A stretch of 64,000 nt of DNA. Source: an uncultured delta proteobacterium (GTDB lineage Bacteria > Desulfobacterota > Binatia > Bin18). Every line of letters starts with the position of its first letter. The stretch's first letter is position 1. Of this stretch, positions 8,267 through 31,369 are shown one piece after another. Made by a program: the position numbers and the translations under genes. Location of the stretch: positions 2,589-66,588 of the forward strand of contig CAVTCR010000057.1 in assembly GCA_963733195.1 (NCBI GenBank), read 5' to 3'. The notes beneath the pieces were generated by a model. That model saw nothing but the letters and a program-made list of their open reading frames with translations, was not told the origin of the DNA and did not search any database.

Positions 8267-8458
8267 AGGTGATGGAACGTAAGCTCACCGCTATAGTGAG
8301 CTAGGCCGAGACGCAGGAGGCACGAGCTGAGGTGGCAGAACTCCTGCGGATTAGCCCTAACTTTCTCTCTGGAAGGAGTGAAACGGGTGAGTGTCTTCAA
8401 AAATCCAGATGACTTAGAGCGCTGGCTTGCTGCCCTGCGCAAGGCGGGACTTAAATAA
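8267..8458 (+). pseudogene. Collapsed remnant of a cyclase/TPR family gene: first ~8 codons fused to last ~50 codons
   Basis: ATGGAACGTAAGCTCACCGC (MERKLTA, the family N-terminus) is joined directly to GCTATAGTGAGCTAGGCCGAG...CTGCGCAAGGCGGGACTTAAATAA. This matches the 3' ends of the paralogs at 30100-30273, 22440-22637 and 11600-11769. Confidence 0.5.
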
Positions 8459-8461
8459 ATG

Positions 8462-8545
8462 AAGAATGAAGTTAAATTAAAAATGATGAAGAATGAATAC
8501 GGAATGATGAATGAAGAACGAGAGTTGAGTGCTGAGTAAAAGAAA
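8462..8545. repeat. Purine-rich GA repeat (AATGAAGAATGAA / GAATGATGAATG / ACTGAGT units) that follows cyclase/TPR family 3' ends
   Basis: Same composition and unit motifs as 11771-11990, 13895-13960, 22638-22765, 24108-24215, 30274-30325 and, in reverse orientation, 63846-63880. Confidence 0.5.
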
Positions 8546-8572
8546 GAACAGGAAAGAGTCCCAACGCCCTTC

Positions 8573-8923
8573 CTACGACTTATTCCCCTCCTTGCTTGGC
8601 ACCAACGGTTCTAGCAGCTTGATCAGGCGTGGCACATCGGAGTTTACGGTTTTCCACACTTCATTCAGATCGACATCGTCGTACTCGTGAATGAGTTTAT
8701 CGCGCATACCCACAATTTTCCTCCAGGGAATCTCCTTGTGCTGCGTGCGAAACTCTTGGGACAGCCGTTTCCCTGCCTCGCCAAGAACAAGCAATTGGTG
8801 GAGGACAGCCGACAGCGTCTTAGCATCATCGAGGAAGGCTCTTTTGTTCATGCCTTCCCTAAATTCAACCGCCAAGCGGGCCGCTTTGAGCATATCCAGG
8901 AGCGTAGCACTATCGCGCGACAT
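8573..8923 (-). CDS. hepT: HepT-like (DUF86) toxin of a HepT/MntA TA pair
   Basis: 116 aa. R-x4-H-x-Y motif (MRDKLIHEY). Overlaps the upstream MntA-like gene by 14 nt. Confidence 0.8.
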   Translation of the reverse strand: MSRDSATLLDMLKAARLAVEFREGMNKRAFLDDAKTLSAVLHQLLVLGEAGKRLSQEFRTQHKEIPWRKIVGMRDKLIHEYDDVDLNEVWKTVNSDVPRLIKLLEPLVPSKEGNKS

Positions 8924-9224
8924 AGATTGGCTCCGCCGTACTCAAGATAGCCTCCCGGCGAATCCAGTTATCACTACGCTCAATTGCCCGTCGGCTGACC
9001 ACGTCTACCTTTCGACCGAGAATCGCTGACAACTCTTCTTCCATATCCACGTGGTCAAATAAGCTCCAGTCCGCATCCGACGCAAAGGTCGCCAGAATAT
9101 CCACATCGCTATCGGAACGAAAGTCATCACGCAGGACGGAACCAAAAAGAGCGAACTCAGTGATCTTCCACCGCTGGCAGAATTCGGTGATCTTGTCATG
9201 ATCAATAGAGATATGGGTACTCAT
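8910..9224 (-). CDS. mntA: MntA-like nucleotidyltransferase antitoxin
   Basis: 104 aa. GS...DxD nucleotidyltransferase motif (FGSVLRDDFRSDSDVDIL). Confidence 0.8.
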   Translation of the reverse strand: MSTHISIDHDKITEFCQRWKITEFALFGSVLRDDFRSDSDVDILATFASDADWSLFDHVDMEEELSAILGRKVDVVSRRAIERSDNWIRREAILSTAEPIYVAR

Positions 9225-9290
9225 ATTTCGATCTCCTCAAGATGTACACTTCCTTTAGCTCTATCCTCAAATACAAGATTCTCACAACGA

Positions 9291-9320
9291 TTGACAGATA
9301 CAAAGCAACAGCAGAATATC
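9291..9320 (+). promoter_or_regulatory. sigma70-like promoter of cyclase paralog 1 (TTGACA-N18-AATATC, CAGCAG before the -10)
   Basis: TTGACA at 9291-9296, 18-nt spacer ending CAGCAG, AATATC at 9315-9320. The same architecture sits upstream of the other paralogs. Confidence 0.45.
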
Positions 9321-9341
9321 TCTTCCCAGGAAAGCGAAACG

Positions 9342-11769
9342 ATGCCCACACACACCACGTCGGGTGGCATGGAACGCAAACTGGCCGCCATCTTTAGCAC
9401 GGATGTCGCAGGCTACAGCCGCCTCATGGGCGACGATGAAGAAGCAACCATCCGCACCCTCACAGCCTATCGCGACTGTGATCTCCTCCCTCATCCAGCA
9501 CATCGTGGCCGAGTGGTCGATTCCCCGGTGATAATCTGCTGGCCGAGTTCGCCAGTGTGGTCGATGCCGTGCGCTGCGCGGTCGAAATCCAACACGCACT
9601 CAAAGTGAAGAATGCCGAGTTGCCTGAACATCGGCAAGATGCAGTTTCGCATCGGCATCAACCTGGGCGATGTGATCGTCGAAGGCGAGCGGCTCTACGG
9701 CGATGGGGTCAACATCGCCGCGCGACTGGAAAGCTTAGCGATCCCGGCGGTATCTGTATCTCTGGGACGGTCTACGACCATGTCGAGAACAAACTTGCGC
9801 TGAACTACGAGTATCAGGGCGAGCAGACGGTCAAGAACATCGCCAAGCCGGTGCGAACGTATCGGGTAGTGATGGATGAAGCCGCAGCGGCCCTGGCCGA
9901 GCAAGCCGTGCTTCGACAAGCTCAGCACCGTAGCCCAGATGAAGCGCAGCGGAATCTCGGAAACACACCGGGTCCTGGATTGCGCTCCGCTCCATCCAGG
10001 CTACTTCCTGTGCCCGCGATGGGACATGTGGCAGGGCTGCTGCTCATCGCGGCAGCAATCGTAACCGTATGGTATATTTCTCGTTCCCCACTCAGTCCTC
10101 AGTCCTCAGCACTCAGTCCTGACGCCGCGCCAGCGGCGCTGCCGCTCCCCGACAAACCCTCCATCGTCGTCCTGCCCTTCGACAACATGAGTAAAGATCC
10201 CGCGCAGGACTACTTCAGCAACGGTATCACCGAAGTGCTCACCTCTGACCTCTCCCGCATCTCCAGCCTCTTCGTCATCGCCCGCAACACGGCCTTCACG
10301 TACCAGGGGAAAGCGGTGAATATCCAAGCCGTGGGGAAAGAACTGGGCGTACGGTACGTCCTGGAAGGCAGCGTCCAGAAGGCGGGGGAGCAAATCCGGA
10401 TCGTGACCCAGTTAATTGATACCACGACCGGCGGGCACCTGTGGTCGCAGCGCTACGACCGTCCGCTGCAAGACCTCTTCGCGCTCCAAGATGAGATCGT
10501 GCAGAAGATCGTGACCACGCTGAAGCTGCAGCTCACGTTGCAAGAGCAAGGGTACGTCGTGCGCAAACACACCGACAACCTGGAGGCCTACGATGCCTTC
10601 TTGCGCGGGCTGGAGTATCATTTACCGCTTCACGAAAGAGGCCAATGCCCAGGCGACGGCAGCTGTTTGAGAAAGCCATTGCGCTGGACCCACAGTATGC
10701 GGAGGCGTACGCGTTGCTGGGTTAGACCTACTGGATAGAGTGGGTCTTTCGCTGGAGCGCGGACCCCCAGACCATGGAGCGTGCGTTGGCGCTCGCGCAA
10801 CAGGCTCTTGCCCTGAATGATTCCCTGCCGACAGCCCATTCGCTCTTGAGCATCGTCTATGCCCAGAAACAGCAGTATGACCAAGCTATAGCCGAGGGCG
10901 AACGGGCGGTCGCTCTCGATCCCAACTATGCGGACAGCTATGCCGTACAGGCGGAGGTGCTGAACTTCGCGGGCCGGCCAGAGGAGGCTCTGCAGTCAGT
11001 GGAGCAGGCGATGCGGCTCAACCCCCGCTGTCCACCCTGGTACTTATACTAGGTTGGGCTTGGCCTACCGCATGACCGGGCGGTATGCCGAGGCGATCGC
11101 CACGCTGAAGGAAGTCATCAGCCGGGACCCCAATTTTATCTATGCCCACCTTCAGCTGGCTGGCAGCTACCTATGGCAGTGGATCGCTCAACAGAGCCCA
11201 GCTGCCCAGACGTTGGAGCCGGCAGTGGCGGCGGGGCAACGGGCCCTGGCCCTCAATGACTCCCTCCACTGGAACCACATAGTCTTGGGCTCTATCTATC
11301 TCTACCAACAGCAGTATGACCAGGCCCTGGCGGAGATGGAGCGGGCCGTGGCCCTCGCTCCTACTGAGGCGGGGAGCTATGCGGCTCTGGCGGAGGTGCT
11401 GAGCTATATGGGCAGGACGGAGGACGCCCTGGAGGCCGCCGCACAGGCGCTGCGCCTGAAGCCCATTATTGTGGACGCCCACTTAGACAGCGTCGGCGCT
11501 GCCTATGCCGTGGCCGGGCGGCCACGAAGAGGCGACTTGCCCCCTTGCAGCGTTATATCAGCCGCTATCCCAACATACTGCGCTGCCCATCTCATGCTGG
11601 CAGCGGTCTACAGCGAGTTAGGCAAAGAGCCGAGGCGCGAGCCGAGGTCGCAGAAGTGCTGCGGCTCAATCCTAAGTTCTCACTGGAGGTTCACAAGAGA
11701 GAATGCCGATCAAAGATCCAGCGGTGTTGGAGCGGCATATTGCGGCGTTGCGCAAGGCAGGACTCAAAT
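9342..11769 (+). pseudogene. Cyclase family paralog 1: class III nucleotidyl cyclase - TM - TolB-N-like periplasmic region - TPR; multiple frameshifts
   Basis: ORFs 9198..9608, 9557..10738, 10774..11052 and 11054..11815 are in different frames. Motifs: MERKLAAIFSTDVAGYSRLMGDDEEATIRTL; LPLPDKPSIVVLPFDNMS...YFSNGITE...RYVLEGSVQKAGEQIRIVTQLIDTTTGGHLWSQRYDRPL; TPR repeats. Ends at the conserved ...RKAGLK stop. Confidence 0.7.
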
Positions 11770-11770
11770 A

Positions 11771-11990
11771 ATGGAGAGTGGAGAATTGAAAATTAAGAAT
11801 GGGGAAACAAGCTGAAGGCTGAAGGCTGGAGGGGGAAATGAAGAGAGATGAAGGGAAAACGAAGAATTAAAAGTGATAAAGAATGAATGCGGAATGATGA
11901 ATACATTAGTAGTCAGTAGGCTCAGAATGCTGAATTATGAATGCAGAATGATGAGTGAAAGAAAAACTCGTGATCTTCCATTCATCGTTC
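11771..11990. repeat. GA-rich repeat block with an internal inverted copy (hairpin-capable)
   Basis: GAATGAATGCGGAATGATGAATAC ... TTCCATTCATCGTTCATCATT are inverted partners. GGCTGAAGGCTGGAGG units are also present. Confidence 0.5.
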
Positions 11991-12093
11991 ATCATTTATC
12001 GTTCAGCGTTTTTTGCCATGCTGGCTACTGTGTTCTCATTACGTTTTACGGCTCCGTTAGCCCTTAGCGCTCAGTTATGAGAGGCAGGAGAGA

Positions 12094-13884
12094 ATGGAAG
12101 AGCGTGTACTGCGGATCAGCTACGGAGTTCTCGTCAGACCCGTGGCCGGTTTTTTCTTGTTGGGCGTTCTTGGGTGGAGTGAACCACTATGGGTTGGCGC
12201 AGAAACCCGGCACGAGCAGTTGCCTGCTTACACCATTGCTTTTTCCTCGCTAGCCCCCTGGGACCTAGACGTGTTCATAGCCAACGCAGACGGCTCCGAA
12301 CCCCAGCCGCTCGCGTCACATCCAGACCTCGACTATAACGCTGCCTTCTCACCGGACGGACAGTGGATCGTCTTTACCTCGCACCGTGACGGTAATGCGG
12401 ACCTGTATCGGGTTCACCCCGACGGTAGCGACCTCCAGCGGCTCACGGATCATCCGGCCTTTGATGATGCCGCTGCCTTCTCCTCTGATGGGAACAGGAT
12501 CGCGTTTGTCTCCAGCCGCTCGGGGCAGGCTGACCTCTGGGTGCTGGAGGTAGAGGGTGGGAAAATCTGGAACGTCACTAACGCGCGAGGCGGAGACTTT
12601 CGTCCCGCCTGGTCTCCAGATGGTCAATGGCTCGCCTTCTCTTCCAACCGTGGCTCATCCTGGGATCAGAGCGAGATTTATATCATTCGACCCGATGGAA
12701 CCGAGCTGCGCCGCTTAACTGTTGCGCCTGGCTGGGACGGGAGTCCCATCTGGTCACCAGATGGTGCACGGGTGGCGTATTATTCTGAGCAGGACGGGAA
12801 TGCACAGATCTTTACGGTGGGGATCGAGAACGAGGCTTCTCCCCGAAGAGTAACAAAGAGTTCTTTTCCTACGCTCTCGCCGTACTGGATAGCGAAGGGA
12901 CGGCTGTGCTTTTCCCGCGCAGGGAGCGAGGGCGCACTTGGCTGTGTCGATCCTGATCAGAAGGAAGAGAACGCCATACAGTTGACCACCCGAGGCGAAT
13001 TTCTCTCCCCCAAATGGTCTCGGGATGGAAAACACGTGGTGTTTCATCGTCCGATCAACCGTCCCGCGCCAACTGTCCGCGAGCGGCGCAGTCCGGTGCC
13101 CGAAGTTCGTCTCCTGCGCATCGAGGGCGTATTTCCCTCGTTTGCGCCGACTGGTGACACGTTGAGCTTCACCGCCAATTTCCGCTCCATCGAACGCATG
13201 CGGCGTGACGGATCGGACCGACATGAGGTCTACCGAGATCCCCAGAGCCCCGCGTTTTTCCCCGCCTGGTCCCCGGTGGGCGACGTGATTGCGTTCACCA
13301 GAGGGCGAGTGTTTGCGGGTGCCAGCACGGATAACGAACTGTATGTGGTGCGGTCCGATGGCGCCCACCCACGAAACATCACCCAACACCCGGCGAACGA
13401 CGCACTGCCCAGTTGGTCCCCTGATGGCCAACGGCTAGTCTTTCGTTCGACCCGCGACGGGGACAAGGAGTTGTATGTGATCGGCATCGACGGCTCAGGG
13501 CTGACCCGCCTAACCATCTCGCCGGGCACCGACACGTTTCCTCACTGGTCTCCTGTGGGCGACCGCATTGTCTTTGCCAGTGACCGCACTGGGGACTTTG
13601 AGATCTACACCATGCGGCCCGATGGTGGCGATGTCCGACAACTGACCCACTCACCAGGGTTCGATATGCATCCGGTGTGGTCACCTGATGGCAAGTGGAT
13701 CTGCTTCACCAGCATGCGTGGTGGCTTGAAAGACGAGCATCCTCTCACTGGCAATCCGCAACCGTATGGGGACCTCTATCTCATGCGACCGGACGGCTCA
13801 GAGGTACAGGCGCTCACTGACGACCAGTTTGAAGATGGCACACCCGGTTGGGCGTCGCTGCTGCACGTCCCTGCGGCAGACTGA
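12094..13884 (+). CDS. Secreted PD40/TolB-like beta-propeller repeat protein
   Basis: 596 aa. N-terminal hydrophobic signal/anchor, then many PD40-type repeats (SPDGQWIVFTSHRDGNADLY; SWSPDGQRLVFRSTRDG...). Confidence 0.8.
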   Translation: MEERVLRISYGVLVRPVAGFFLLGVLGWSEPLWVGAETRHEQLPAYTIAFSSLAPWDLDVFIANADGSEPQPLASHPDLDYNAAFSPDGQWIVFTSHRDGNADLYRVHPDGSDLQRLTDHPAFDDAAAFSSDGNRIAFVSSRSGQADLWVLEVEGGKIWNVTNARGGDFRPAWSPDGQWLAFSSNRGSSWDQSEIYIIRPDGTELRRLTVAPGWDGSPIWSPDGARVAYYSEQDGNAQIFTVGIENEASPRRVTKSSFPTLSPYWIAKGRLCFSRAGSEGALGCVDPDQKEENAIQLTTRGEFLSPKWSRDGKHVVFHRPINRPAPTVRERRSPVPEVRLLRIEGVFPSFAPTGDTLSFTANFRSIERMRRDGSDRHEVYRDPQSPAFFPAWSPVGDVIAFTRGRVFAGASTDNELYVVRSDGAHPRNITQHPANDALPSWSPDGQRLVFRSTRDGDKELYVIGIDGSGLTRLTISPGTDTFPHWSPVGDRIVFASDRTGDFEIYTMRPDGGDVRQLTHSPGFDMHPVWSPDGKWICFTSMRGGLKDEHPLTGNPQPYGDLYLMRPDGSEVQALTDDQFEDGTPGWASLLHVPAAD

Positions 13885-13894
13885 CGGAGGAATA

Positions 13895-13960
13895 GAAAGA
13901 TAGGCTAAAGGCTGAAGGGAAAGGAAATAAAGAAGGGAAAATGATGATAACTACTCAGCC
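13895..13960. repeat. GA-rich repeat copy
   Basis: GGCTAAAGGCTGAAGGGAAAGGAAATAAAGAAGGGAAAATGATGATAACTACTCAGCC. Same family as 8462-8545. Confidence 0.45.
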
Positions 13961-13993
13961 GCAGAGCGGCGAATGTAGGAAGACTGGCAGCAT

Positions 13994-14023
13994 TTGACAA
14001 ACACGAGGAGCCAGCAGGATAAT
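13994..14023 (+). promoter_or_regulatory. Orphan copy of the cyclase-family promoter (TTGACA-N18-GATAAT) with no gene behind it
   Basis: TTGACA 13994-13999, spacer ending CAGCAG, GATAAT 14018-14023, then ATCGCCGC as in the other copies. An inverted-repeat-flanked element follows immediately. Confidence 0.4.
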
Positions 14024-14042
14024 CGCCGCTGGGGAAGTAGGT

Positions 14043-14268
14043 GTCATTGCGAGTTGTCCATAGCGCTGACGCTAAGCCTTCAAGTAAAAACGGGACACAT
14101 GCTCGTCCCCAGGCTCTGCCTGGGGACGGAATGAGACGGAGTCTCCTGACTACTGCCGTTCCAGGCAGAGCCTGGGACGGAGGACTGAAGATTTGTTTCT
14201 GAGCAGCGCAGCGAAGCAATCTTTGCCGAAAAGAGATTGCTTCGTCGCCTGCGGCTCCTCGCAATGAC
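14043..14268. mobile_element. MITE-like composite element: 11-bp terminal inverted repeats enclosing a REP hairpin pair and a 12-bp-stem hairpin
   Basis: GTCATTGCGAG (14043-14053) and CTCGCAATGAC (14258-14268) are inverted repeats. Inside are REP hairpins at 14106-14126 and 14159-14178, plus GCGAAGCAATCT...AGATTGCTTCGC. Confidence 0.45.
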
Positions 14269-14373
14269 AGGCCCCTGCATCTTCGCATGAAGTCAGGTAG
14301 TTATTAGATTTCTGATCCTTATGGGGAGAATGAGGAAGCAACCCTTCGCAAGAGCTAAGCGACGAGGGCAGGG

Positions 14374-16399: not shown

Positions 16400-16406
16400 G
16401 TGAGGT

Positions 16407-16730
16407 ATGGCACGTTTTGTGAAAGTCGCAAAAGTCGAGGAAATTCCTCCGGGGCAGGGCAAGCAGGTGATAGCGCACGAGAAGCCTATGGCCCTGTTTA
16501 ATGTTGACGGCGTCTTTTATGCCGTTAACCAGATCTGCCCGCATATGGGTGGTCCCCTGTCCGAGGGGACCCTCACCGGCACGGTTGTCCGCTGTCCCTG
16601 GCACGGCTGGACCTACTGTGTGGACACCGGCTTACCCGACCATCCTGGCGGACACTCGGTGGCGGCCTACGAGGTGCGGGTGGAGGGGGACGACATTTTG
16701 GTGGGCTGGCTGAAACGAGCTAGGCGATAG
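16407..16730 (+). CDS. Small Rieske [2Fe-2S] ferredoxin-like protein (NirD-like)
   Basis: 107 aa. CPHMGGPL ... CPWHGW Rieske ligands. Confidence 0.85.
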   Translation: MARFVKVAKVEEIPPGQGKQVIAHEKPMALFNVDGVFYAVNQICPHMGGPLSEGTLTGTVVRCPWHGWTYCVDTGLPDHPGGHSVAAYEVRVEGDDILVGWLKRARR

Positions 16731-16796
16731 GCTGTAGGCTACAGGCTATAGGGTTCTGAAGGCTGACAGCATATCACCTAACTTTGACCTTGTGGC

Positions 16797-16863: not shown

Positions 16864-16931
16864 TATGCGGAAGACTCCATGCTAGAGCTATGAGCATGAG
16901 CGTAGCGACGAGCCATACGCCATCAAGCGAG

Positions 16932-19653: not shown

Positions 19654-19659
19654 AACACA

Positions 19660-20640: not shown

Positions 20641-20670
20641 TTGACATCCACTCCACTCTGGCAGGATAAT
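20641..20670 (+). promoter_or_regulatory. sigma70-like promoter of cyclase paralog 2 (TTGACA-N18-GATAAT)
   Basis: TTGACA 20641-20646, spacer ending CAGCAG, GATAAT 20665-20670, AAGGATAAG ribosome-binding site (RBS), ATG at 20692. Confidence 0.5.
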
Positions 20671-20691: not shown

Positions 20692-22637
20692 ATGGAGCGC
20701 AAACTCACTGCCATTCTCAGTGCCGATGTCAAAGGCTACAGCCGCCTCATGGGCGAGGATGAGGAGGCCACCATCCGCACCCTCACGGCCTATCGGCGAA
20801 GTGATGACTACGCTGATCCAGCCAGCATCGCGGCCGGGTCGTCGACTCGCCCGGCGATAACATGCTGGCCGAGTTCGCCAGCGTGGTGGATGCCGTGCAA
20901 TGCGCAGTCGAAATCCAACAAGACGCTCAAAGTCAGAAAATGCGGAGTTGCCGACCGATCGCAAGATGGAGTTTCGCATCGGCATCAACTTGGGCGATGT
21001 GCTTAGTCGAGGGCGAGCGGCTCTATGGGGACGGGGTCAACATCGCCGCACGGTTAGAAGGCTTAGCCGAGCCGGGCGGCATTTGCATCTCGGGCACGGT
21101 GCACGAACAAGTCAAGAACAAGCTGGCCTTGCAGCTACGAAGATCTGGGCGAACAGCAGGTCAAGAACATCGCCGAGCCGGTGCGGGTGTGGCGGGTACG
21201 ATGGGAGACGGCAATCAAAGGCAGAGGACTCGGCAAATCAAAAGGCAAAAGGCACAAGGGCAAAAGACAGAAAAAGTTGTCAGTCGTCAGTTCTCAGTTG
21301 TCAGTCCCCAGCCCCCACGCCGAAGCCGAATCGCACTGATTATCATAGGACTTCTCATTGCTGTCGGGGTCTTGGCCTTCTCGTTTCTTTCCCCATTCAT
21401 CACTCATCATTCATCACTCATCACTCAGGAGGCGCAGCCTCCGTCGCTGCCCTTGCCCGACAAACCCTCCATCGTCGTGCTGCCCTTCGTCAACATGAGC
21501 GAAGATCCCAAGCAGGAGTATTTCAGCGACGGGCTCACCGAGGACCTCACCTCCGCTCTCTCGAAGATCTCCAGCCTGTTCGTCATCGCTCGCAACTCGG
21601 CCTTCACCTACAAAGGCAAAGCGGTGAAAGTGCAAGACGTGAGCAAGGAGTTGGGCGTGCGGTATGTGCTGGAAGGCAGTGTGCGCAAGGCTGACAACCA
21701 GGTGCGGATCACGGCGCAGTTGATCGATGCCACCACCGGCGGTCACTTGTGGTCCGAGCGTTACGACCGCCCCCTACAGGACATCTTTGCCCTGCAAGAT
21801 GAGGTCGTACAGAAGATCGTGACGACGCTGAAACTCCAGCTCACGTTGCAGGAGCAAGGGATTCTGGTGCGCAAGACCACGGACAACCTGGAGGCCTATG
21901 ACTACTACTTGCGCGGGAGGGAGCATTTTAATCGCTTCACGCAAGAGGCCAATGCGCAGGCCCGGCAGATGTTTGAGAAAGCCCTTGAGCTGGACCCACA
22001 GTATGCGGAGGCGTACGCCTTCCTGGGTTGGACCTACTTTAGGGAGTGGGGCTTGCAATGGAGTCAGGACCCCCAGACCCTGGAGCAGGCGTTTGCGCTG
22101 GCGCAAAAGGCCGTGGCCCTGGATGACTCCCTACCCCAGGCCCACGTGGTATTGGGCGCTGTCTATCTGTGGAAAAAGCAGCATGACCAGGCCATCGCCG
22201 AGGCAGAGCGGGCCATTGCCCTCGATCCCAACTATCGCTGAGGCTATGCGTGGCTGGGGGAGATCTGAACTGTGCGGGGCGGCCGGAGGAAGCCATCGGG
22301 TTGATAGAGAAGGCGATGCGCCTCAACCCCCATTATCCGCCTTTCTACTTATTCTTCTTAGGCGAGGCCTACCGCTTGACGGGGCGGTATGAGGAGGCGA
22401 TTGCAGCTTACAAGAGAGCCCTCACCCGCAACCCCGATTTTCTGCCTGCCCACCTTACCTGGCTGCCATCTACAGTGAGTTGGGCCGGGAGGAGGAGGCC
22501 CGGGCGGAGGTGGCAGAAGTCCTGCGGATCAAGTCCCAAGTTCTCTCTGGAGGTTTTGAGGCAGAGGCTCGCCCTATAAAGATCCAGCGGTATTAGAGCG
22601 CATTCTTGCCGCCCTGCGCAAGGCGGGGCTGAAGTAA
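20692..22637 (+). pseudogene. Cyclase family paralog 2: class III cyclase - TM - TolB-N-like - TPR; frameshifted in the cyclase domain and the C-terminal TPR
   Basis: ORFs 20692..21006, 20862..22241 and 22250..22579. MERKLTAILSADVKGYSRLMGEDEEATIRTL. TM plus LPLPDKPSIVVLPFVNMSEDPKQEYFSDGLTEDL...RYVLEGSVRKADNQVRITAQLIDATTGGHLWSERYDRPL. Conserved ...LAALRKAGLK stop. Confidence 0.7.
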
Positions 22638-22765
22638 ATGAAGAATGAAAAATGGAGAGTGAAGACTGGGAAGAGAGGCTTAAGGCTGAAGGCTAAAGGG
22701 AGGAGGAAATGAAGAATGAAGAGTAAGAAGAGAGGAATGAGTACTGAGTGACGAGAGACAGGATA
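22638..22765. repeat. GA-rich repeat copy
   Basis: ATGAAGAATGAAAAATGGAGAGTGAAGACTGGGAAGAGAGGCTTAAGGCTGAAGGCTAAAGGG...GGAATGAGTACTGAGTGA. Confidence 0.5.
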
Positions 22766-22862
22766 TACGTGCTGTGTTGGTTGACACTAGCGCCTAGGGT
22801 GCGCCTGAAGATAGAAGCAACAGCAGCCATGCTGCAGCCAACCGCTCAAGAAGGAGGGCGCT

Positions 22863-23255
22863 ATGGCCCAGAAAGAGATTGAAGTAATTCTTACCCGGCA
22901 ACTCGCAAGTTATCTTGCCATGCCGATCATCATCATTGACTCTGCGGGAACCCTCCTCTTCTATAATGAGCCGGCCGAGGGGATTCTGGGGAGGCGGTTC
23001 GAGGAAACAGGGGAACTCTCTGCAGACGAATGGGCGCAGACCCTCGTGGCTACAGATGAACAAGGTACGCCGCTTGCGCCGGATACGCGGCCGCTTCTGA
23101 TTGCTCTGACCGAGAAGCGGCCGACGCACTGCGATATGTGGCTCCAAGGGCTGGATCACGTGCGCCGGCACATCGAGGTTACCGCCTTTCCGTTGATCGG
23201 TCAGGCCGGAGGTCATCTGGGAGCAGTCGGAATTTTCTGGGAGGTAGAAAAATGA
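22863..23255 (+). CDS. PAS domain protein
   Basis: 130 aa with PAS-fold-like composition (IIDSAGTLLFYNEPAEGILG...). RBS AAGGAGGG. Confidence 0.55.
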   Translation: MAQKEIEVILTRQLASYLAMPIIIIDSAGTLLFYNEPAEGILGRRFEETGELSADEWAQTLVATDEQGTPLAPDTRPLLIALTEKRPTHCDMWLQGLDHVRRHIEVTAFPLIGQAGGHLGAVGIFWEVEK

Positions 23256-24106
23256 AAGTTACCCTGTGGGGCACTCGTGGCTCGGTGGCAGCACCGGGCG
23301 CAGAAACGGCACGATATGGCGGTAACACTGCCTGTGTGGAGGTGCGTGGGGCGGACGACACTGTGCTCATTCTTGATGCCGGCACCGGTATCCGCCGGCT
23401 GGGCACCACGCTCTCGCCCTCTGTACGGCGAGTGAACATTTTGTTGACCCACTTACATATGGATCACCTCCAAGGGTTAGGGTTCTTTGCTCCTTTGTAT
23501 AACCCCGCGGTCGAAGTCCACATCTGGGGACCAGCGAGTCCAACCCTCAGTCTCGAGAAACGCTTGATGCGCTACCTCTCCCCCCCGCTCTTTCCCGTGC
23601 GGCTGCGGGAGTTGCCCTGCCGTTTGTTCCTGCATGAAGTGCCCTGCAAGGACTTTGACGTTGGAGAGTTTCATATCTCTTCTTCCCTTATCTGCCACCC
23701 TGGCCCCACCGTCGGCTACCGGATTACGACGGCTCGTGCCAAGTTCGCCTACCTTACCGATCACGAGCCGACACTTGGGGTACCGAGGTTTCCCTTGGCT
23801 AGTGAGTGGACTTCCGGGTACGCCCTTGCAGCCAATGTGAACCTGCTTATCCATGATGCTCAGTACAGTAACAAGGAATACACCAATTGTGTTGGTTGGG
23901 GTCATAGTACCATGCAGGACGCTATTGCCTTCGCTGCCCTCGCTGCTGCGAAACACTTGGTACTGTTCCACCATGATCCTACTCACACAGATGAGGATCT
24001 CGATCGGCTGACCGCTGAGGCGATAGCTGTAGCGCAGCCTACCTTTCCTGTCACGTTGGGTGCAGAAGGCGCCGTGTTCGACTTGGGCTTTACAGACCGG
24101 GAATAA
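23252..24106 (+). CDS. MBL-fold metallo-hydrolase (HxHxDH = THLHMDH), possible phosphodiesterase
   Basis: Start is the ATG at 23252 after GGAGGTAGAAAA; the listed ORF 23138.. is an N-terminal over-extension. MKVTLWGTRGS...ILDAGTGI...LLTHLHMDHLQGL...GWGHS is the MBL signature. Confidence 0.8.
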   Translation: MKVTLWGTRGSVAAPGAETARYGGNTACVEVRGADDTVLILDAGTGIRRLGTTLSPSVRRVNILLTHLHMDHLQGLGFFAPLYNPAVEVHIWGPASPTLSLEKRLMRYLSPPLFPVRLRELPCRLFLHEVPCKDFDVGEFHISSSLICHPGPTVGYRITTARAKFAYLTDHEPTLGVPRFPLASEWTSGYALAANVNLLIHDAQYSNKEYTNCVGWGHSTMQDAIAFAALAAAKHLVLFHHDPTHTDEDLDRLTAEAIAVAQPTFPVTLGAEGAVFDLGFTDRE

Positions 24107-24107
24107 T

Positions 24108-24215
24108 GATGAATGAAAAATGAAGAGGGAAGAATAGGAAGGTAGGCTGAAGGCTGAAGGGGGAGGAAATGAAGAATGAAAAATGAAAGTGCAGAGGGAT
24201 GAGTAACCATTAGTT
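24108..24215. repeat. GA-rich repeat copy
   Basis: GATGAATGAAAAATGAAGAGGGAAGAATAGGAAGGTAGGCTGAAGGCTGAAGGGGGAGGAAATGAAGAATGAAAAATGAAAG. Confidence 0.5.
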
Positions 24216-24219
24216 ATCA

Positions 24220-24552
24220 GTGGTCAGATGGAAAGCGGCGTGCAAAAGAGTTGGTATCGAGCTTTCACGCATGTATCCTCGCATCTTGCAACAGATCCAA
24301 GCGTTCATAAGACAAGGAGCATACGTACTTTCTGTTCATGTGGAGAATGAGTTGGAAGACGACGGCTTTACGGATCAAGACCTTGAGACTGCGATTCTCA
24401 ATGGAGAGATTGTGCGGCGAGAGCGAGACAACATTGGCCGGCCCAAGTATGTCCTCGAAGGCACCGCCCTGGATGGACGCGGACTCACCGCCGTAGTGCA
24501 ACCATTCCAGATGCGTCAGCTCGTTGTTATTGTGACAGTCTATGAAACATAA
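24220..24552 (+). CDS. DUF4258-like putative toxin
   Basis: 110 aa, ends ...LVVIVTVYET, typical of DUF4258. Followed at -11 nt overlap by a zinc-ribbon protein. Confidence 0.55.
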   Translation: MVRWKAACKRVGIELSRMYPRILQQIQAFIRQGAYVLSVHVENELEDDGFTDQDLETAILNGEIVRRERDNIGRPKYVLEGTALDGRGLTAVVQPFQMRQLVVIVTVYET

Positions 24553-24817
24553 AAAGGTAGTAGATATGACAGGTGAGATATGCGTCCGATGCTGTGAAGG
24601 ACGCCTGGAAGCAACGCGGGGACGTGAATACTTTCGCTATGGCCAGTCCCTTGTCATTATCGAGGACGTTCCTGCTTGGGTGTGTAGAAAATGTGGCGAA
24701 CGGTATCACCACGCCCGCGTCTATAAGAAGATGCGGCAGATCGCTGCCCACAGTGATCAGCTCACCGAGCATGTGAGCATTCCTGTCGCGCGCTATCAGG
24801 AAGGTGAAGCTGCGTGA
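24542..24817 (+). CDS. YgiT/MqsA-type zinc-ribbon putative antitoxin
   Basis: CVRCCEG...VPAWVCRKCGE gives two CxxC pairs. Confidence 0.5.
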   Translation: MKHKKVVDMTGEICVRCCEGRLEATRGREYFRYGQSLVIIEDVPAWVCRKCGERYHHARVYKKMRQIAAHSDQLTEHVSIPVARYQEGEAA

Positions 24818-24856
24818 GCGGATAGGGGTATACCTATGTCACGTGTTCCGCTTTCG

Positions 24857-25774: not shown

Positions 25775-25795
25775 ACTTTTCTTCCTTTGTTGACG

Positions 25796-26746
25796 TCAGA
25801 GCCCGATGGTGAGCGGCAACCACTGCACCCGTTCTGACCACGGACGCCAGGTGTGCAGATTGTCCAGCGTAATCATCCGTCCTACTGGGCTCATTACCAG
25901 AAACTCTTCGTATTGTTCTCTCTTTGTGAGGTGTCGCACGATTACCTCTCCCAGCGTGGTCCCGATGCCGGAGGCATCCAGATCCCAGGTGCCAGCGATC
26001 TTGCCTTGCCGAACGGCTTCAACCGCGGCTGGTGAACCATTGCGACAAACAATTTTCATCTCCTTGGCTCGCCCAGCCTCTTCGACGCATGCGAGTGCGC
26101 CATGCATGGTTTCATCATTGTATGGAATCAGTCCATCAATACGTGGGAACTCCGCGAGCAGCCGCGACATCGGTTCCCGTGCGCCAACCGCAATATCGGT
26201 GAGATTGCAGTACTGTGGCTGGGTCGGGTCATTGAGTAACTTACAGTGACTCTGCTGTAGAGCAAACACCAACCCGGCCACTTCTTCGGCATCGTCTACC
26301 GAGTGTGGTCCGCCAATGACGGCCACACCGCTGTTTGGAGCCAGGAGCGAGACGAGATGTTCAGCCATGAAAACACCCTGATTGAAGTTCGGATAGATCA
26401 CCGAGGCATTAACCGGGTAGTGCGGACGAACGAAGGTGAAGACTGGAATGCCAGCCGCACGAGCCTTGGCTACGGGTTCACGGAAAGCGGACGGGGTAAT
26501 GACGTAGATGACGATGGCATCAACTCGGGCAGTGATTCCTGCTGCAATCGCGTCTTCATATTGACGACGATAATCTGGAGCAGTGAAATCGGCAAAGAGC
26601 ACACGGAGTTCGATCTCTGCCGCATGAAGAGAATGTTGGAGCCCGTAGGCAATAGCATCAATGGCCGGATTTCCACCCAGCGCGAGCGGATTGATATAGA
26701 GTACACGCATGGCCATAAGCTCCTTCCTTTTCTTACGTCGCCACAA
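25796..26746 (-). CDS. Paralog of the preceding PBP-fold protein (tandem duplicate)
   Basis: 316 aa, roughly half identical to 24857..25774 (MRVLYINPLALGG...IPYNDETMHGALACVEEAGRAKEMKIVCRNGSPAAVEAVRQG). True start is probably the MAMRVL/MRVL Met near 26713. Confidence 0.55.
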   Translation of the reverse strand: MWRRKKRKELMAMRVLYINPLALGGNPAIDAIAYGLQHSLHAAEIELRVLFADFTAPDYRRQYEDAIAAGITARVDAIVIYVITPSAFREPVAKARAAGIPVFTFVRPHYPVNASVIYPNFNQGVFMAEHLVSLLAPNSGVAVIGGPHSVDDAEEVAGLVFALQQSHCKLLNDPTQPQYCNLTDIAVGAREPMSRLLAEFPRIDGLIPYNDETMHGALACVEEAGRAKEMKIVCRNGSPAAVEAVRQGKIAGTWDLDASGIGTTLGEVIVRHLTKREQYEEFLVMSPVGRMITLDNLHTWRPWSERVQWLPLTIGL

Positions 26747-26805
26747 ACTCCACCCGTAGCGGAGTACAGGTCGGGTGATTCAGTCGCTTACCGTCAATTT
26801 CTTGA

Positions 26806-27339
26806 TCAAACGGACACGCCGAGATGGCGACGAGACAATCCATCAAAGCTTTCAGGGCAATATACTCCCCCGCCTGGCCGCGGCGGGCTGGTAATTAATC
26901 GTGCCGTCCGCCTTCGGTCGCGTATTTTGAAACAGATTGACTGGGTCGGGATATCGAGATACCCCAGTCCATACGGAGTGACTGCCTGTGTGAGATTATC
27001 GCGGCAGTTGCGATGTGTCGGATCGCCCGCCGTGGCGGCATAGAGGGCGCTGCTGCACGGAGCAAACTGCAAATCATGCACGCCCTTGGCCAAATCTTCG
27101 ACAATCTCAAACATGGGGTTTTGCAGATTGGAGTAGAACTTACTCCCGACCGTCAAGTGGATGGAGCCGCTCCCTGCCAGGGAGTTGAAGTTCACGGTCT
27201 CACCCGTGGAGAGTTTCTCCCGCGGTTGATGCAGGTTGAAACAAACGAAGTCACCGATCTGGTGTCCCTCGACGTCAATGACCTTGATCGTCTCACCCCG
27301 TCGGACTACAAACGCAGCTCCTTCAGTAGCGGGAATCAC
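26806..27339 (-). CDS. DUF1989-like (urea-carboxylase-associated family) protein, C-terminus possibly disrupted
   Basis: FVVRRGETIKVIDVEGHQIGDFVCFN...EKLSTGET pattern. The C-terminal 40 aa are low-complexity and look out of frame. Confidence 0.5.
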   Translation of the reverse strand: MIPATEGAAFVVRRGETIKVIDVEGHQIGDFVCFNLHQPREKLSTGETVNFNSLAGSGSIHLTVGSKFYSNLQNPMFEIVEDLAKGVHDLQFAPCSSALYAATAGDPTHRNCRDNLTQAVTPYGLGYLDIPTQSICFKIRDRRRTARLITSPPRPGGGVYCPESFDGLSRRHLGVSV

Positions 27340-27410
27340 TAGATGTTGTTCTCTCGGGCATGGTACTGTCCTCCTCTGGCGTTTCTATGGGCGATGCTTC
27401 TGGATCCCTC

Positions 27411-27486
27411 GTGCTCAGGCTCTGCCTGGGCACGAGAAGACGTCATTCGACACTTTTTCCCTCGGTCCTAGGCTCTGCCTAGGACC
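27411..27486. repeat. REP hairpin pair downstream of the RAYT gene
   Basis: GTGCTCAGGCTCTGCCTGGGCACG (27411-27434) and GGTCCTAGGCTCTGCCTAGGACC (27464-27486). Each is an imperfect palindrome. Confidence 0.65.
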
Positions 27487-27522
27487 GCACTGTCTGACGG
27501 TCTCTTTTCACCTTTTGCCTCA

Positions 27523-28056
27523 TTACCAATCTGTCACTACGTCGATCAGTCCTTTTTCTCCCGCGTACGTCCGCGCGCTGGAGTAACGCCAATGTACGGG
27601 GTCATCCACGTAGCCACGTCGTACCGGGTTTGCGTGCATATACTCCAGCTTCTGTCTCATCATTTCCTCGTTCTGGATCTGTTGAGGATGACTTCCCTCT
27701 TGCCAGAGTTGAAATGTCTGGTCGGTCTTATGGCGCAGTTTGAAAAACCGGAGTTCTTCACGCAATGTAGAGAACCCTTCTTGTGCGAGTCTATCAATGA
27801 TCCGGCGCGCGGTGTAGGACTTGAATCGGCCTACGTACTCGGAGAGACCGTCCGCCGCGGCAATCCAATGCAGGTGGTTCTCGAGAATCACGTACCCGAA
27901 GATGCGCACCCCTCGTTCCCGCTGAAGGAACCGCCACGACTCTAAGACGATCTCGACACATTGCGGATGGGCGAAGACCGGAAGCCACGCGACTACGGTG
28001 CAGGTGAGAAAATACGGGGACTCTTCTGTGAAGATGCGGTAGCGGGTACGTGACAT
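27523..28056 (-). CDS. REP-associated tyrosine transposase (RAYT; IS200/IS605-like Y1 HUH transposase)
   Basis: 177 aa. HUH motif (ILENHLHWIAA) and catalytic Tyr region (HWRYSSARTY). Flanked on both sides by REP hairpin pairs. Confidence 0.8.
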   Translation of the reverse strand: MSRTRYRIFTEESPYFLTCTVVAWLPVFAHPQCVEIVLESWRFLQRERGVRIFGYVILENHLHWIAAADGLSEYVGRFKSYTARRIIDRLAQEGFSTLREELRFFKLRHKTDQTFQLWQEGSHPQQIQNEEMMRQKLEYMHANPVRRGYVDDPVHWRYSSARTYAGEKGLIDVVTDW

Positions 28057-28079
28057 CGGGTGTATTTCCTAGCGAGGCA

Positions 28080-28173
28080 GAGCTTAGCAAACATTGCGCT
28101 CCCAGGCGGAGCCTGGGAACGAGATGAACGAGAGGAATCACTGGTGGAGGCAAGTGACTACTACCTTTGTTCC
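28080..28173. repeat. REP hairpin pair upstream of the RAYT gene
   Basis: GCTCCCAGGCGGAGCCTGGGAACG (28080-28103) and GTTCCCAGGCTCAGCCTGAGAAC (28151-28173). Confidence 0.65.
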
Positions 28174-28209
28174 CAGGCTCAGCCTGAGAACAAGATGATA
28201 TAGTGACGG

Positions 28210-28239
28210 TTGACAGCTCGGCAACACCAGCAGAATAAT
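28210..28239 (+). promoter_or_regulatory. sigma70-like promoter of cyclase paralog 3 (TTGACA-N18-AATAAT)
   Basis: TTGACA 28210-28215, spacer ending CAGCAG, AATAAT 28234-28239. ATG at 28277. Confidence 0.45.
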
Positions 28240-28276
28240 CCAGATCTATGCAGGACAACCCCACCAGCAAGAGGGT

Positions 28277-30273
28277 ATGAAGGTGCCTACGCATACATCG
28301 GTTGGCATGGAACGCAAGCTCGCGGCGATCTTCAGCACCGATGTCGCGGGTTACAGTCGCCTCATGGGCGACGATGAAGAAGCCACCATCCGCACCCTTA
28401 CTGCCTATCGTACACTGATTTCCTCCCTGATCCAGCAGTACCGTGGCCGGGTGGTCGATGCGCCCGGCGATAACCTGCTGGCCGAGTTTGCCAGTGTGGT
28501 CGATGCCGTGCGCTGTGCGGTCGAGATCCAACACGCACTTAAAGAGAAGAACGCCGAGCTACCTGAGCATCGCCAGATGCAGTTTCGCATCGGCATCAAC
28601 TTGGGCGATGTGATTGTCGAGGGCGAACGACTTTATGGTGATGGCGTCAACATCGCCGCGCGGCTGGAAAGTCTAGCGACCCCGGGCGGCATTTGTATCT
28701 CAGGGACGGTGTATGACCAGGTCGAGAACAAACTGGTGCTGAACTACGAATATCAGGGCGAGCAGACGGTCAAGAACATCGCCAAGCCGGTGCGGGTGTT
28801 TCGCATCCTGCTAGAGTCCGATGCTGCTTCCTCAGACAATCAAGCCGTGCTTCGACACGCTCAGCACGAACGGACACCGACTCCGGTCACCCTGAGTCCT
28901 TCGACAAGCTTCGAGGACAGGCTTTATCGAAGGGTGCTCAACTGAAACGCAAGGGGGGACTGTTGCTGGCTGGGCTGCTGCTCATCGTGGCAACAATCGT
29001 AGCAGTCCGGTATTTTTCTCGTCCACCTCTCAGTCCTCAGCCCTCAGTACTCGTCACTGAGGAGGCGAAGCCTCCGTCGCTTCCCTTGCCCGACAAACCC
29101 TCCCTCGTCGTGCTGCCCTTCGTCAACATGAGCGGAGACCCCAAGCAGGACTATTTCAGCGATGGCATCACTGAAGACCTCACCACGGCCCTCTCGCAAA
29201 TTTCCAGTCTGTTCGTCATCGCCCGCAACTCCGCCTTCACCTACAAGGGCAAAGCCGTCAAGGTGCAGGACGTCGGGCAGAGAACTGGGCGTGCAGTACG
29301 TGTTGGAAGGCAGCGTGCGCAAAGCCAACGACCAGGTGCGGATCACCGCGCAGTTGATCGATGCGGCGACAGAGTCTCACCTCTGGGCGCAGCGGTATGA
29401 CCGTCCACTGAAGGACATCTTTGCCCTGCAAGACGAGATCGTGCAGAAGATCGTGACGACGTTGAAGCTGCAGCTCACCTTGCGGGAGCAAGGGTACCTG
29501 GTGCGCAAGACCACGGACAACCTGGAGGCCTATGATGCTACTTGCGTGGGCTGGAGGCATGGAACCGCTACACGAAAGAGACCAATGCCCAGGCCCGGCA
29601 GCTGTTTGAGAAAGCGATTGCGCTGGACCCGCAGTATGCCGAGGCGTACGCGAGGCTGAGTCGAACACTCTCCACGGAGTGGGTCTATGGCAATGGAGTC
29701 AGGATCCTCAGACGCTGGAGCGCGCGTTGGTCCTGGCGCAACAGGCCGTTGCCTTGGATGACTCCTTGCCTGGAGCCCATGAGGTATTGGCTTTTGCCTA
29801 TCCCTATAAAAAACAACATGAGCAAGCCATTGCGGCAGCCAAGCGGGCCATTGCTCTTGCTCCCAATGACGCGGAGGGCTATGCGAATTTGGGGCACATT
29901 TTGATCTTTGCCGGGCAGCCAGAGGAAGCCATTGAGCTTGATCGAGAAGGCGATGCGCCTCAACCCCCGCTATCCGTTCCACTACTTATCCTTGCTCGGC
30001 ATGGCCTATGTCTTGGCGAGGCGGTATGAGGAAGCGCTCGCAGTCCTGCAGAGCGCCACCTCTCCGCAACCCCAATTTTCTGCCTCCTCATCTTCATTTG
30101 CTTGTCAGCTATAGTGAGCTAGGCCGAGATGCGGAGGCCCGAGCTGAGCTGGCAGAACTCCGGCGGCTCAATCCCAATATTCTCTCTGGAGTGGTATAGG
30201 CGGGTGATGCTTCAAAGATCCAGCGGACTTGGAGCGGTATCTTGCCGCCCTGCGCAAGGCGGGGCTGAAATAA
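28277..30273 (+). pseudogene. Cyclase family paralog 3: intact class III cyclase domain ORF (222 aa) followed by frameshifted TM - TolB-N-like - TPR part
   Basis: ORF 28277..28945 has a complete cyclase domain (MERKLAAIFSTDVAGYSRLMGDDEEATIRTL...GDGVNIAARLESLATPGGICISGTVYDQV). ORFs 28963..29400, 29162..29659, 29679..30029 and 30008..30199 continue the TM/TolB-N-like/TPR part in shifting frames. Conserved ...LAALRKAGLK stop at 30271. Confidence 0.7.
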
Positions 30274-30325
30274 TGGAAAATGGAGAATTAAAAATTAAAA
30301 ATGAAGAATGAGCACTGAGGAAAAA
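30274..30325. repeat. GA-rich repeat copy
   Basis: TGGAAAATGGAGAATTAAAAATTAAAAATGAAGAATGAGCACTGAGG. Confidence 0.45.
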
Positions 30326-30408
30326 CAGAGGTCCTTTTACATTTTACGCTTTGCACCTTTGGTCAGTGGTCAACTGTCAGCTTTCAGTTTGCACGTGACC
30401 CGGAGGCG

Positions 30409-30780
30409 CTAGCTTGTTTGCGCAAGTAAAGTCTCTACCAAAGCCTGTTGTTCTTTTCTTGAAGAAGACCCTATGTGAGCAAGTAAATCATGGGAGAGCC
30501 GCAGGGCTTTTCGCTGCCAATCCACAATAGCGGCGAATTCTTTATCTAATCCTGCCTTGATCGCTTCTGTTGAAGAGATTTCCTGCTTCGTAAGTACAGT
30601 TCGCAGAAAGGTTGTATATCCGCGGACAAAAGCGCCGACGACTCGCCCGGAGTCTGGGTCTCGCCGGATGTATATTCCTGAATCTAGAGGAACTGCCTCC
30701 GCAGGTTGAGGTGCGTCCGCATCAATCAGGAGATCAAGTTCATCGGATTCCGGATCGTATCCAAGGGCCTGGATCTTCAT
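30409..30780 (-). CDS. DUF2283-like small protein (putative antitoxin) with C-terminal extension
   Basis: N-terminal 55 aa (MKIQALGYDPESDELDLLIDA...GIYIRRDPDSGRVVGAFV) fit the DUF2283 pattern. 10-nt gap to the upstream ORF. Confidence 0.4.
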   Translation of the reverse strand: MKIQALGYDPESDELDLLIDADAPQPAEAVPLDSGIYIRRDPDSGRVVGAFVRGYTTFLRTVLTKQEISSTEAIKAGLDKEFAAIVDWQRKALRLSHDLLAHIGSSSRKEQQALVETLLAQTS

Positions 30781-30789
30781 ACTTCGCCT

Positions 30790-31122
30790 TTATTTTCTTT
30801 CATACCAGCAACTTTGATAGAACTTTATCCACTTGTCACCGCTTTGTCGGACATATTTGACACTGACGATGAGGAAATGCCGAGACCATTGATTCAGGCC
30901 AGATACGCGGAGGATACGAAAGTATCTCTGCTCTTCATCAGCTGCCCGATGTTTATCAGACTCGACACTTTCTGCCGCCGTCATGGCTGCCTTCGTGAGT
31001 TCGAGTGCATCTTCGATCTCTGGCCGCTTGGCGACATGTTCTTGCCACTGGCGGCGGCTAATTTGGCATTCAACTCCGTCGCTGTCCTGACCGTTCCACA
31101 AAACATCTAGATTTTCTGCCAC
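30790..31122 (-). CDS. Hypothetical protein, possible toxin partner of the DUF2283-like gene
   Basis: 110 aa, no recognisable motif. Called on gene-pair geometry only. Confidence 0.3.
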   Translation of the reverse strand: MAENLDVLWNGQDSDGVECQISRRQWQEHVAKRPEIEDALELTKAAMTAAESVESDKHRAADEEQRYFRILRVSGLNQWSRHFLIVSVKYVRQSGDKWIKFYQSCWYERK

Positions 31123-31237
31123 GCCTACCCTACGCCTACTGTTAAAGGAATTTCATTATGACTGATCTCTAGCACGGATGGTAGAGTCAAAATTATCAAC
31201 CCTCTGTCTTGCACAGAAATGAGGTTCTCCCCGCCGC

Positions 31238-31369
31238 TTGACGGGCAGACGGGGCCGGCAGGATAATCGCCTGCGGTGAAGGGTACACATGGAACGCGAG
31301 CTCACCGTGATCCTGAGCGTTGATGTCGAACGCTACAATACGCGTAGTGTTCCAAGTAAAATACATTAA
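31238..31369 (+). pseudogene. Remnant of a cyclase family gene: promoter (TTGACG-N18-GATAAT) plus 26-codon N-terminal stub
   Basis: TTGACG 31238-31243, CAGCAG, GATAAT 31262-31267, ATCGCCTGCGGTGAAGG as in paralog 2, then ATGGAACGCGAGCTCACCGTGATCCTGAGCGTTGATGTC (MERELTVILSVDVERY...) ending at a stop after 26 codons. Confidence 0.45.

Follow-up and report, generated by a model that had tools for sequence, protein, structure and literature searches.

We analysed a 64,000-nucleotide stretch of DNA from an uncultured delta proteobacterium of the Binatia (positions 2,589 to 66,588 of contig CAVTCR010000057.1, assembly GCA_963733195.1; hereafter the window), which carries three paralogous cyclase genes, all on the forward strand: par1 (9342-11771), par2 (20692-22637) and par3 (28277-30273). 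A self-comparison of the window gives them 76-81% pairwise DNA identity and reveals in par1 an extra, internally duplicated block of tetratricopeptide repeats (TPR). Their predicted architecture consists of a class III cyclase domain followed by one membrane helix, a TolB_N-like domain and a TPR array, par1 being of a ~800-aa type with a long TPR array, par2 of a ~635-aa type, and par3 of a ~655-aa type. Three-frame translation recovers N-terminal, periplasmic and C-terminal blocks common to the three copies, spread across shifting frames. An earlier reading of this stretch (the original prediction) had described these common blocks, and they do lie at or near the positions that it gave once the frame changes are followed. 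It had also noted that no copy has an intact frame, which is what we find in the genes as written, with 8-15 frameshifts per copy.

The only complete piece is the cyclase domain of par3, whose first 222 codons form an intact open reading frame (ORF; 28277-28945) that matches the Pfam family Guanylate_cyc (PF00211) with 49 bits against a cut-off of 21.9. In par1, residues 201-292 of a 393-aa ORF (9557-10738), after the membrane helix, match TolB_N (PF04052) with 28.1 bits against a cut-off of 22.4, and weaker matches to FlgO, FlgT_M and CadC_C1 cover the same stretch. Both domains that the original prediction had marked for a profile search are thus found above their curated cut-offs. TPR matches were obtained in Pfam for ORFs 11054-11815 and 20862-22241, as well as for the homologous proteins P0054 and P0039. 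Comparators of known structure for the cyclase domain are PDB 3MR7, Ma1120 (4WP9), and Rv1900c/LipJ (1YBT), and the par3 domain aligns with 3MR7 over 187 residues (E = 1.8e-40). The Asp of FSTDVAGYS and that of PGDN, which we take to be the metal-binding pair of class III cyclases, and the Asn and Arg of VNIAARLE, presumably their transition-state pair, are the same residues in 3MR7. Unlike 3MR7, which has a Lys in its K-T-T-G-D motif, par1-3 and every close homolog that we read have an Asp at this position (VVD[SA]PGD; VVDAPGD at 28430-28445). The Lys of K-x-x-G-D is the adenine-specifying residue of class III cyclases. Its replacement by Asp makes the nucleotide specificity and the activity of the family uncertain, and the substrate may be other than ATP.

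From the domain order and from what is established for class III cyclases, we predict that the catalytic domains at the N-terminus dimerise in the cytoplasm, that the single helix spans the membrane, and that the periplasmic TolB_N-like domain together with the TPR array receives a signal and alters the output of the cyclase. To our knowledge, no member of this exact cyclase-TolB-like-TPR architecture has been experimentally characterised. The cytoplasmic linker of par1 also contains a palindromic insert with 32-nt arms (9930-10004, forward strand), translated as SPDEAQRNLG...SAPSRLL. It is not present in four related copies from other assemblies (L161, L162, L001, and L049, see below), and seems to be tolerated inside coding sequence, because the same peptide stands in frame in the intact proteins P0122 and P0126.

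The three copies are further members of a known and very abundant architecture. At least 8000 protein candidates were scored for the family, 1412 were found with a 292-aa query, and intact homologs of ~650, ~800 and ~1030 aa bear the JGI name 'TolB-like protein/class 3 adenylate cyclase/Flp pilus assembly protein TadD'. Intact relatives of the same architecture, for which the original prediction had suggested a search, are therefore plentiful. Among the matches listed, the closest intact proteins are 76-77% identical to par3 and 83-84% to par1 (84% for P0054, encoded at locus L001), and the protein collection gave no par1 ortholog more than 84% identical. The closest genomes are metagenome-assembled genomes (MAGs) of Candidatus Binatia and 'Deltaproteobacteria', with at least 12-20 family copies per genome. 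In 67 of 78 loci from MAGs a single frame is open across the whole match, and 11 are broken. With the receptor-type class III cyclases that carry periplasmic TolB-like and TPR parts, par1-3 share domain order and length, and their amino acid identity to thousands of intact proteins is 50-84%; the frameshifting indels, probably artefacts, are the sole difference. Three candidates for syntenic counterparts were rejected: the route through the PD40 gene next to par1 led to L081, whose contig breaks 60 nt inside the cyclase; L084 has its last 148 codons intact but is too distant to be a syntenic par1 ortholog; and a proposed synteny between the par3 locus and L001 (cyclase, two small minus-strand genes, promoter and stub) involves unrelated small genes.

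A frameshift-aware protein-to-DNA alignment with the nearest intact homologs places 15 frameshifting indels in par1, 10-12 in par2 (10 as such, and two further events at 22239 that the alignment reads as a stop codon), and 8 in par3. In total, ~33 indels affect one or two bases each (24 insertions, 9 deletions), and there is one clear nonsense substitution, TGG to TAG at 10723 of par1 (GGTTGGACC to GGTTAGACC). The nucleotide alignments that the original prediction had called for do locate the indels, as single bases gained or lost where the surrounding sequence is well conserved, mostly outside homopolymers (about 3 of 13 indels of par1 lie in runs of 2-3 identical bases). They do not bear out decay, since the lesions are almost purely indels and insertions outnumber deletions.

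The encoded proteins moreover retain the constraint of intact ones. The dN/dS of the repaired paralogs against their nearest intact homologs is 0.19-0.29, versus 0.15-0.28 for intact pairs of similar divergence. A panel of 42 intact proteins has 131 columns with at least 93% conservation, of which par1, par2 and par3 break one, one and none, respectively, after frame repair, against a median of one for the intact proteins. A larger panel, made of 88 intact ~800-aa homologs, has 318 columns with at least 90% conservation; repaired par1 breaks a single one of these, whereas the intact homologs themselves break 2-37 (median 10.5). The private substitutions of par1 are distributed over codon positions 1, 2 and 3 as 25, 21 and 59 (56% third), and those of the intact L001 copy as 33, 23 and 67 (54% third). 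Bacterial mutation produces roughly ten substitutions per indel, and bacterial pseudogenes show a deletion bias. Drift to the extent of 15 indels should thus have cost par1 many constrained residues, and it lost just the one. Decay under relaxed selection, which the original prediction had proposed for all copies, is not supported: dN/dS is unchanged, conserved residues are kept, the codon-position bias is that of an intact gene, and constraint is as in intact genes, or stronger.

Real inactivation would have to accommodate these observations. All copies may have been recently switched off, for example following the loss of a downstream signalling pathway, and indels would have accumulated since. 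The ORFs are broken as written, par1 has a nonsense substitution, the 11 broken loci of related MAGs show that such copies are found elsewhere, and the region contains hits by IS4 and IS256-like elements, deletion remnants, and a stub that is common to the relative L081 (see below). However, this would imply 8-15 indels per gene with essentially no substitution at constrained sites, an indel-to-substitution ratio far above the usual one to ten, and an excess of insertions (24 versus 9) contrary to the deletion bias of pseudogenes. We consider it unlikely, the more so as such frameshifts are found only in copies from long-read-style assemblies, and as many of the inserted bases have no obvious mutational origin.

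The first of these two points comes from a five-way DNA alignment of par1 with four related copies, in which the assembly types are deduced from record and contig names, except for L049, and the sample is small. In this alignment par1 has 15 private frameshifting indels and 105 private substitutions. L161 and L162, par1-like copies on ENA contigs with Flye-style names, have 4 private frameshifting indels each, with 7 and 9 private substitutions, respectively, and L049 has 5, with 56 private substitutions. L001, on a JGI contig taken as short-read, has none, although it shows 123 private substitutions and is the longest private branch. No indel is common to any two of the five, and the frameshifts of L161, L162 and L049 are nearly all +1 insertions. 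L049 belongs to a Microflora Danica MAG, obtained from Nanopore reads only by Flye assembly and one round of Medaka (PMC12313526). The 393-aa ORF of par1 has an entry in the protein collection, where it is assigned to a 67,166-nt contig with NCBI and ENA as sources, and the L049 ORF has the same pair of sources. No private 1-nt insertion is present in six more sequences, which lie on JGI and other MAG contigs taken as short-read. The flanks of L049, tried as a control for the general error rate, gave no clear domains.

Broken copies also occur in other MAGs. The clearest two, L004 (~4673) and L040 (~4304), have a single in-frame stop as their only lesion; both come from the MAG binchicken_co185_232, with SPAdes-style NODE contigs taken as short-read, and either copy may be a true pseudogene of recent origin or hold a read-through site. 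Several others give both stops and frameshift calls, the latter partly end-of-alignment effects; L045 lacks a stop. The TAG at 10723 of par1 is also present in L161 (10695) and not in L162, though L162 is the closer relative of L161, which indicates that it is recurrent and not inherited. Its recurrence suggests a systematic error at GGTTAGACC, which may arise during base-calling, possibly at a modified motif. We could thus find no lesion inherited within a lineage among the compared copies, every frameshift being private to its assembly and the TAG being distributed against the phylogeny.

The second point concerns the bases inserted. Of the 19 private single-base insertions of par1, L161, L162 and L049, 11 hold both alleles of an adjacent polymorphic site, against a background of 7.9% when the same criterion is applied to ordinary columns (binomial P = 3e-8). 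At GGCGACTTGC, for instance, the others have either GGCGA-TTGC or GGCGC-TTGC. In addition, indels are underrepresented in the stretches of highest conservation (P = 0.015), a tendency to which alignment placement may contribute.

Taken together, the lesion spectrum, the kept constraint, the both-alleles insertions and the restriction to long-read-style assemblies lead us to propose, with a probability of about 0.8, that the dense frameshifts of par1-3 are consensus errors of a long-read metagenome assembly and not decay, and that the actual genes probably have intact frames and evolve under purifying selection. The assembly would be a long-read metagenome of Flye type, as we infer for the window itself. 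Consensus building or polishing would have mixed reads from closely related templates, either other paralogs or co-existing strains; at the sites of difference between these, both alleles would have been written in, giving a +1 insertion, or neither, giving a -1 deletion. A comparable process has been described for a collapsed diploid assembly, in which nearby allelic variants shift read alignments and cause indel errors, 98% of the assembly errors being indels or complex variants (Cosentino et al., 2021; PMC8445201). As we propose for the window, those artefacts are almost all indels at variants between templates, and they make intact genes look pseudogenised. They differ in that PacBio reads of a diploid eukaryote were involved and the templates were its two alleles, whereas here they would be paralogs or strains of a metagenome, and the polishing mechanism is read from the sequence pattern alone. 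The original prediction had itself held that assembly errors behind the frameshifts would remove its pseudogene reading, and such errors are probably what the lesions represent.

Ordinary residual long-read errors, random or in homopolymers, could in principle have persisted in repeats that short-read polishing does not reach. Indel-dominated errors are typical of long-read assemblies (PMC8445201; PMC12007338), the affected genes are multi-copy, and many short-read contigs end inside such genes. We nevertheless regard this explanation as very improbable. The indel contexts, with about three of 13 par1 indels in short runs, speak against a homopolymer or random origin, the errors cluster at polymorphic sites, and unique neighbour genes of ~2 kb are intact. 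A simple unpolished-repeat origin is likewise disfavoured by the two insertion sequence (IS) elements of the window, which should be the most repeated sequences of all and whose transposases are both free of frameshifts; this fits errors arising only where mixed templates differ.

The chance is slimmer still that the indels are real and made by the cell, template switching or recombination between paralogs inserting bases where the copies differ and switching sensors off, with the heptamer arrays in the linkers and after the stop codons acting as recombination-prone module boundaries. Finally, the genes might be expressed despite their frameshifts through programmed frameshifting or correction at the RNA level, the protein being hence under selection. 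The sole support for this is the perfect conservation of the encoded protein across the frame changes. It would demand 8-15 shifts per gene, in both directions and at unrelated, non-slippery sequences, at positions that differ between related copies, while homologs on JGI and other MAG contigs need none. We know of no recoding mechanism that handles such frameshifts, and consider this barely conceivable.

Several points weigh against the consensus-error explanation. Its basis is the pattern of lesions, and the sequencing technology of the source of the window is itself inferred. Most other genes of the window are intact, so that errors would have to be concentrated more than 100-fold in the cyclase family; mixed templates could account for this. 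The both-alleles test on par2 and par3 alone gives 5 of 6 and 1 of 4 insertions against a background of ~35%, the homologs being distant and the test having little power. The nine deletions are less directly explained than the insertions. Copies L010, L051, L057 and L073 in other MAGs show both frameshifts and stops, in part as end-of-alignment effects, and real pseudogenes probably do occur in the family. Lastly, related genes in the same region are undoubtedly degraded for real, through IS hits and deletions that leave remnants.

Upstream of the genes, we found a motif (TTGAC-N15-GCAGRATAWT) that occurs five times in the window (9291, 13994, 20641, 28210, and 31238) versus zero expected by chance, each site preceding a paralog or a stub. 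The original prediction of one promoter architecture for all copies thus holds. The sites of par2 (20641-20670) and par3 (28210-28239) match the pattern exactly, and that of par1 (9291-9320), with TTGACA, an 18-nt spacer and GAATAT, has one mismatch and aligns with the other copies and with L002; all three are on the forward strand. With up to two mismatches allowed, at least 20 loci of other MAGs have the motif 54-86 nt ahead of a family gene, and it also precedes a second cyclase subfamily. We predict that it represents a conserved, family-specific, near-consensus promoter of the sigma-70 type, and its presence before family genes in many MAGs marks it as a family promoter, not as the sign of a mobile unit.

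Downstream, purine-rich heptamer tails follow the stop codons of par1 (11772-12025), par2 (22636-22744, with AATGAAG and AGGCTAA units), and par3 (30266-30320), as well as a collapsed remnant at 8267 (see below), all on the forward strand. Behind the purine-rich arrays of par1 comes an inverted heptamer array, predicted to fold into a long, terminator-like hairpin with a U-run (fold energy -54.2 kcal/mol, z = -8.8). L081, a close relative, has a tail ~210 nt shorter. Similar purine-rich tails lie behind homologs in other assemblies. The GA-rich repeat that the original prediction had placed after the stop codon is thus present behind all three paralogs, but it is not specific to cyclases: the same heptamers follow two non-cyclase genes on the forward strand, one coding for a PD40 beta-propeller (12094-13884, tail at 13886-13953) and one for a metallo-beta-lactamase-fold protein (23138-24106, tail at 24099-24203), and period-7 repeats occur throughout the window.

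In the family loci, runs of TGA at 7-nt spacing number 74, versus 5-13 for other spacings, and period 7 or 14 accounts for ~30 of the 51 rows reported for the window by Tandem Repeats Finder, mostly at gene ends. Examples are 4542-4623, 10091-10120, 11811-12010, 16721-16752, 21239-21427, 22637-22722, 24144-24188, 34668-34763, 43096-43180, and 50871-50898. The units just after stop codons often hold TGA and thereby place stops in all three frames, and inverted units (TCA...) are found in the coding linkers that follow the membrane helix of par1-3, as well as in the linker of the cyclase-AAA gene described below. Heterocystous cyanobacteria have short tandemly repeated heptanucleotide sequences (STRR). 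These resemble the repeats of the window in being abundant tandem 7-nt units, mostly intergenic, and differ in organism and in units, those of the window often having TGA on the sense strand after stop codons, with inverted copies in coding linkers.

The window also contains partial copies of the family, all on the forward strand. At 8267-8518, the first ~8 codons (MERKLTAI) are joined to the last ~55 codons (8267-8458) and followed by a heptamer tail, which agrees with the head-to-tail collapse originally proposed; a motif search of the window gave no family promoter at this remnant. A second footprint (13994-14330) had been called promoter-only at 13994-14023. The promoter is indeed there, but not alone, since it is followed by a degenerate 5' stub with a ~270-nt interruption, whose remainder (LMGENEEATLRKS and a stop) lies at ~14283-14326, upstream of a glycosyltransferase gene. 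At the same place downstream of its PD40 gene, L081 (94-96% DNA identity) has the promoter and an uninterrupted stub of 31 codons. The stub of the window holds a 228-nt insert (14042-14269) resembling a miniature inverted-repeat transposable element (MITE), with 12-bp perfect terminal inverted repeats and two hairpins (CCAGGC-N3-GCCTGG) of the repetitive extragenic palindromic (REP) type, and this insert is not present in L081. The third footprint (31238-31369) consists, as first described, of the promoter and a 26-codon stub ORF (31289-31369). A gap of 15 nt separates it from a luciferase-like monooxygenase gene (31385-32437), for which this footprint now probably serves as promoter and leader. 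Both promoter-plus-stub remnants hence stand directly upstream of other genes.

Other assemblies contain similar footprints. L085 keeps only a 46-aa tail before its PD40 gene. In L001 (13159-13560), the family promoter precedes a mini-gene of 116 aa in which the first ~52 codons are joined in frame to the last ~55, and which a heptamer tail follows; this is a collapse of the same kind as that at 8267-8458 of the window, but with an open frame. The footprints are real, and they predate the split between the strain of the window and L081. The duplicated family with conserved promoter, 3' repeat and deletion footprints that had been originally described is supported, remnants recurring in L081, L085 and L001. 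Duplication and internal deletion drive the turnover of the family.

The idea of a self-contained cassette survives in part, in that promoter and 3' repeat are carried along with the gene. As a mobile unit it fails: we could find neither terminal inverted repeats bounding the copies in the window nor a linked recombinase, and the similarity between copies reaches no further than ~70 nt ahead of the start codon and 35-100 nt past the stop. The nearby IS and MITE-like elements are separate from it. Six REP-like palindromes (CCAGGC-N3-GCCTGG at 14109, 14161, 16848, 28102, 33816, and 33946, some as doublets) occur in the window versus 0.09 expected. One of them adjoins a 177-aa ORF on the reverse strand (27523-28056) with a weak match to IS200-like Y1 transposases (E = 0.003), which may be a REP-associated transposase. 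A Trans_reg_C winged-helix stub on the reverse strand (58081-58266) matches residues 5-66 of relatives carrying that extra domain and looks like a further remnant; near it, a 196-nt repeat occurs at 58157-58352 and 59830-60026 with 75% identity.

A cyclase gene of another family lies on the reverse strand at 870-4818 and codes for a cyclase domain, a Walker A motif (GEPGLGKS), and a helical TPR-like region. It is presumably of the cyclase-AAA ATPase-TPR type of Mycobacterium tuberculosis Rv0386, with which it shares the order cyclase, Walker A, TPR-like. It forms a family separate from par1-3, being cytoplasmic, with no membrane helix and no TolB-like domain. The damage to this gene is real and stems from two insertion sequences and an internal deletion: it is split by an IS4-family element on the forward strand (2247-3741) with clear inverted repeats (2247-2285 and 3703-3741) and an intact transposase (2373-3692), its middle part is lost, it is truncated near 870 by an IS256-like element, and it has about three frame changes. 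The IS4 hit was already part of the original prediction, and the IS256-like truncation comes in addition. The transposase of the latter element, assigned by reading the sequence, occupies positions 1-870 of the window on the reverse strand and runs off its start with an intact frame of more than 275 aa.

Neighbour genes of 1-2 kb and several small toxin-antitoxin genes are intact. Between the cyclase copies, intact toxin-antitoxin-like pairs code for HepT and an MNT nucleotidyltransferase (8573-9224, reverse strand), and for a DUF4258 protein with a partner weakly matching MqsA (24220-24817, forward strand). The only broken gene that we noticed outside the cyclase families codes for a major facilitator superfamily (MFS) transporter (60808-62128, reverse strand), where one frame change leaves overlapping ORFs of 255 and 205 aa.

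The real features are thus modest: a family promoter conserved across many Binatia-like genomes, an abundance of heptamer repeats, and recurrent internal-deletion remnants from which neighbouring genes may obtain promoters. Should the frameshifts prove real, a signalling family would have lost all its members at once through indels only, which would be an unusual event. Three tests that require no reads can separate artefact from decay, namely the violation of conserved residues after frame repair, the codon-position bias, and insertions holding both alleles. A multi-copy family such as these cyclases may look uniformly pseudogenised in long-read metagenome assemblies while its unique neighbours stay clean.

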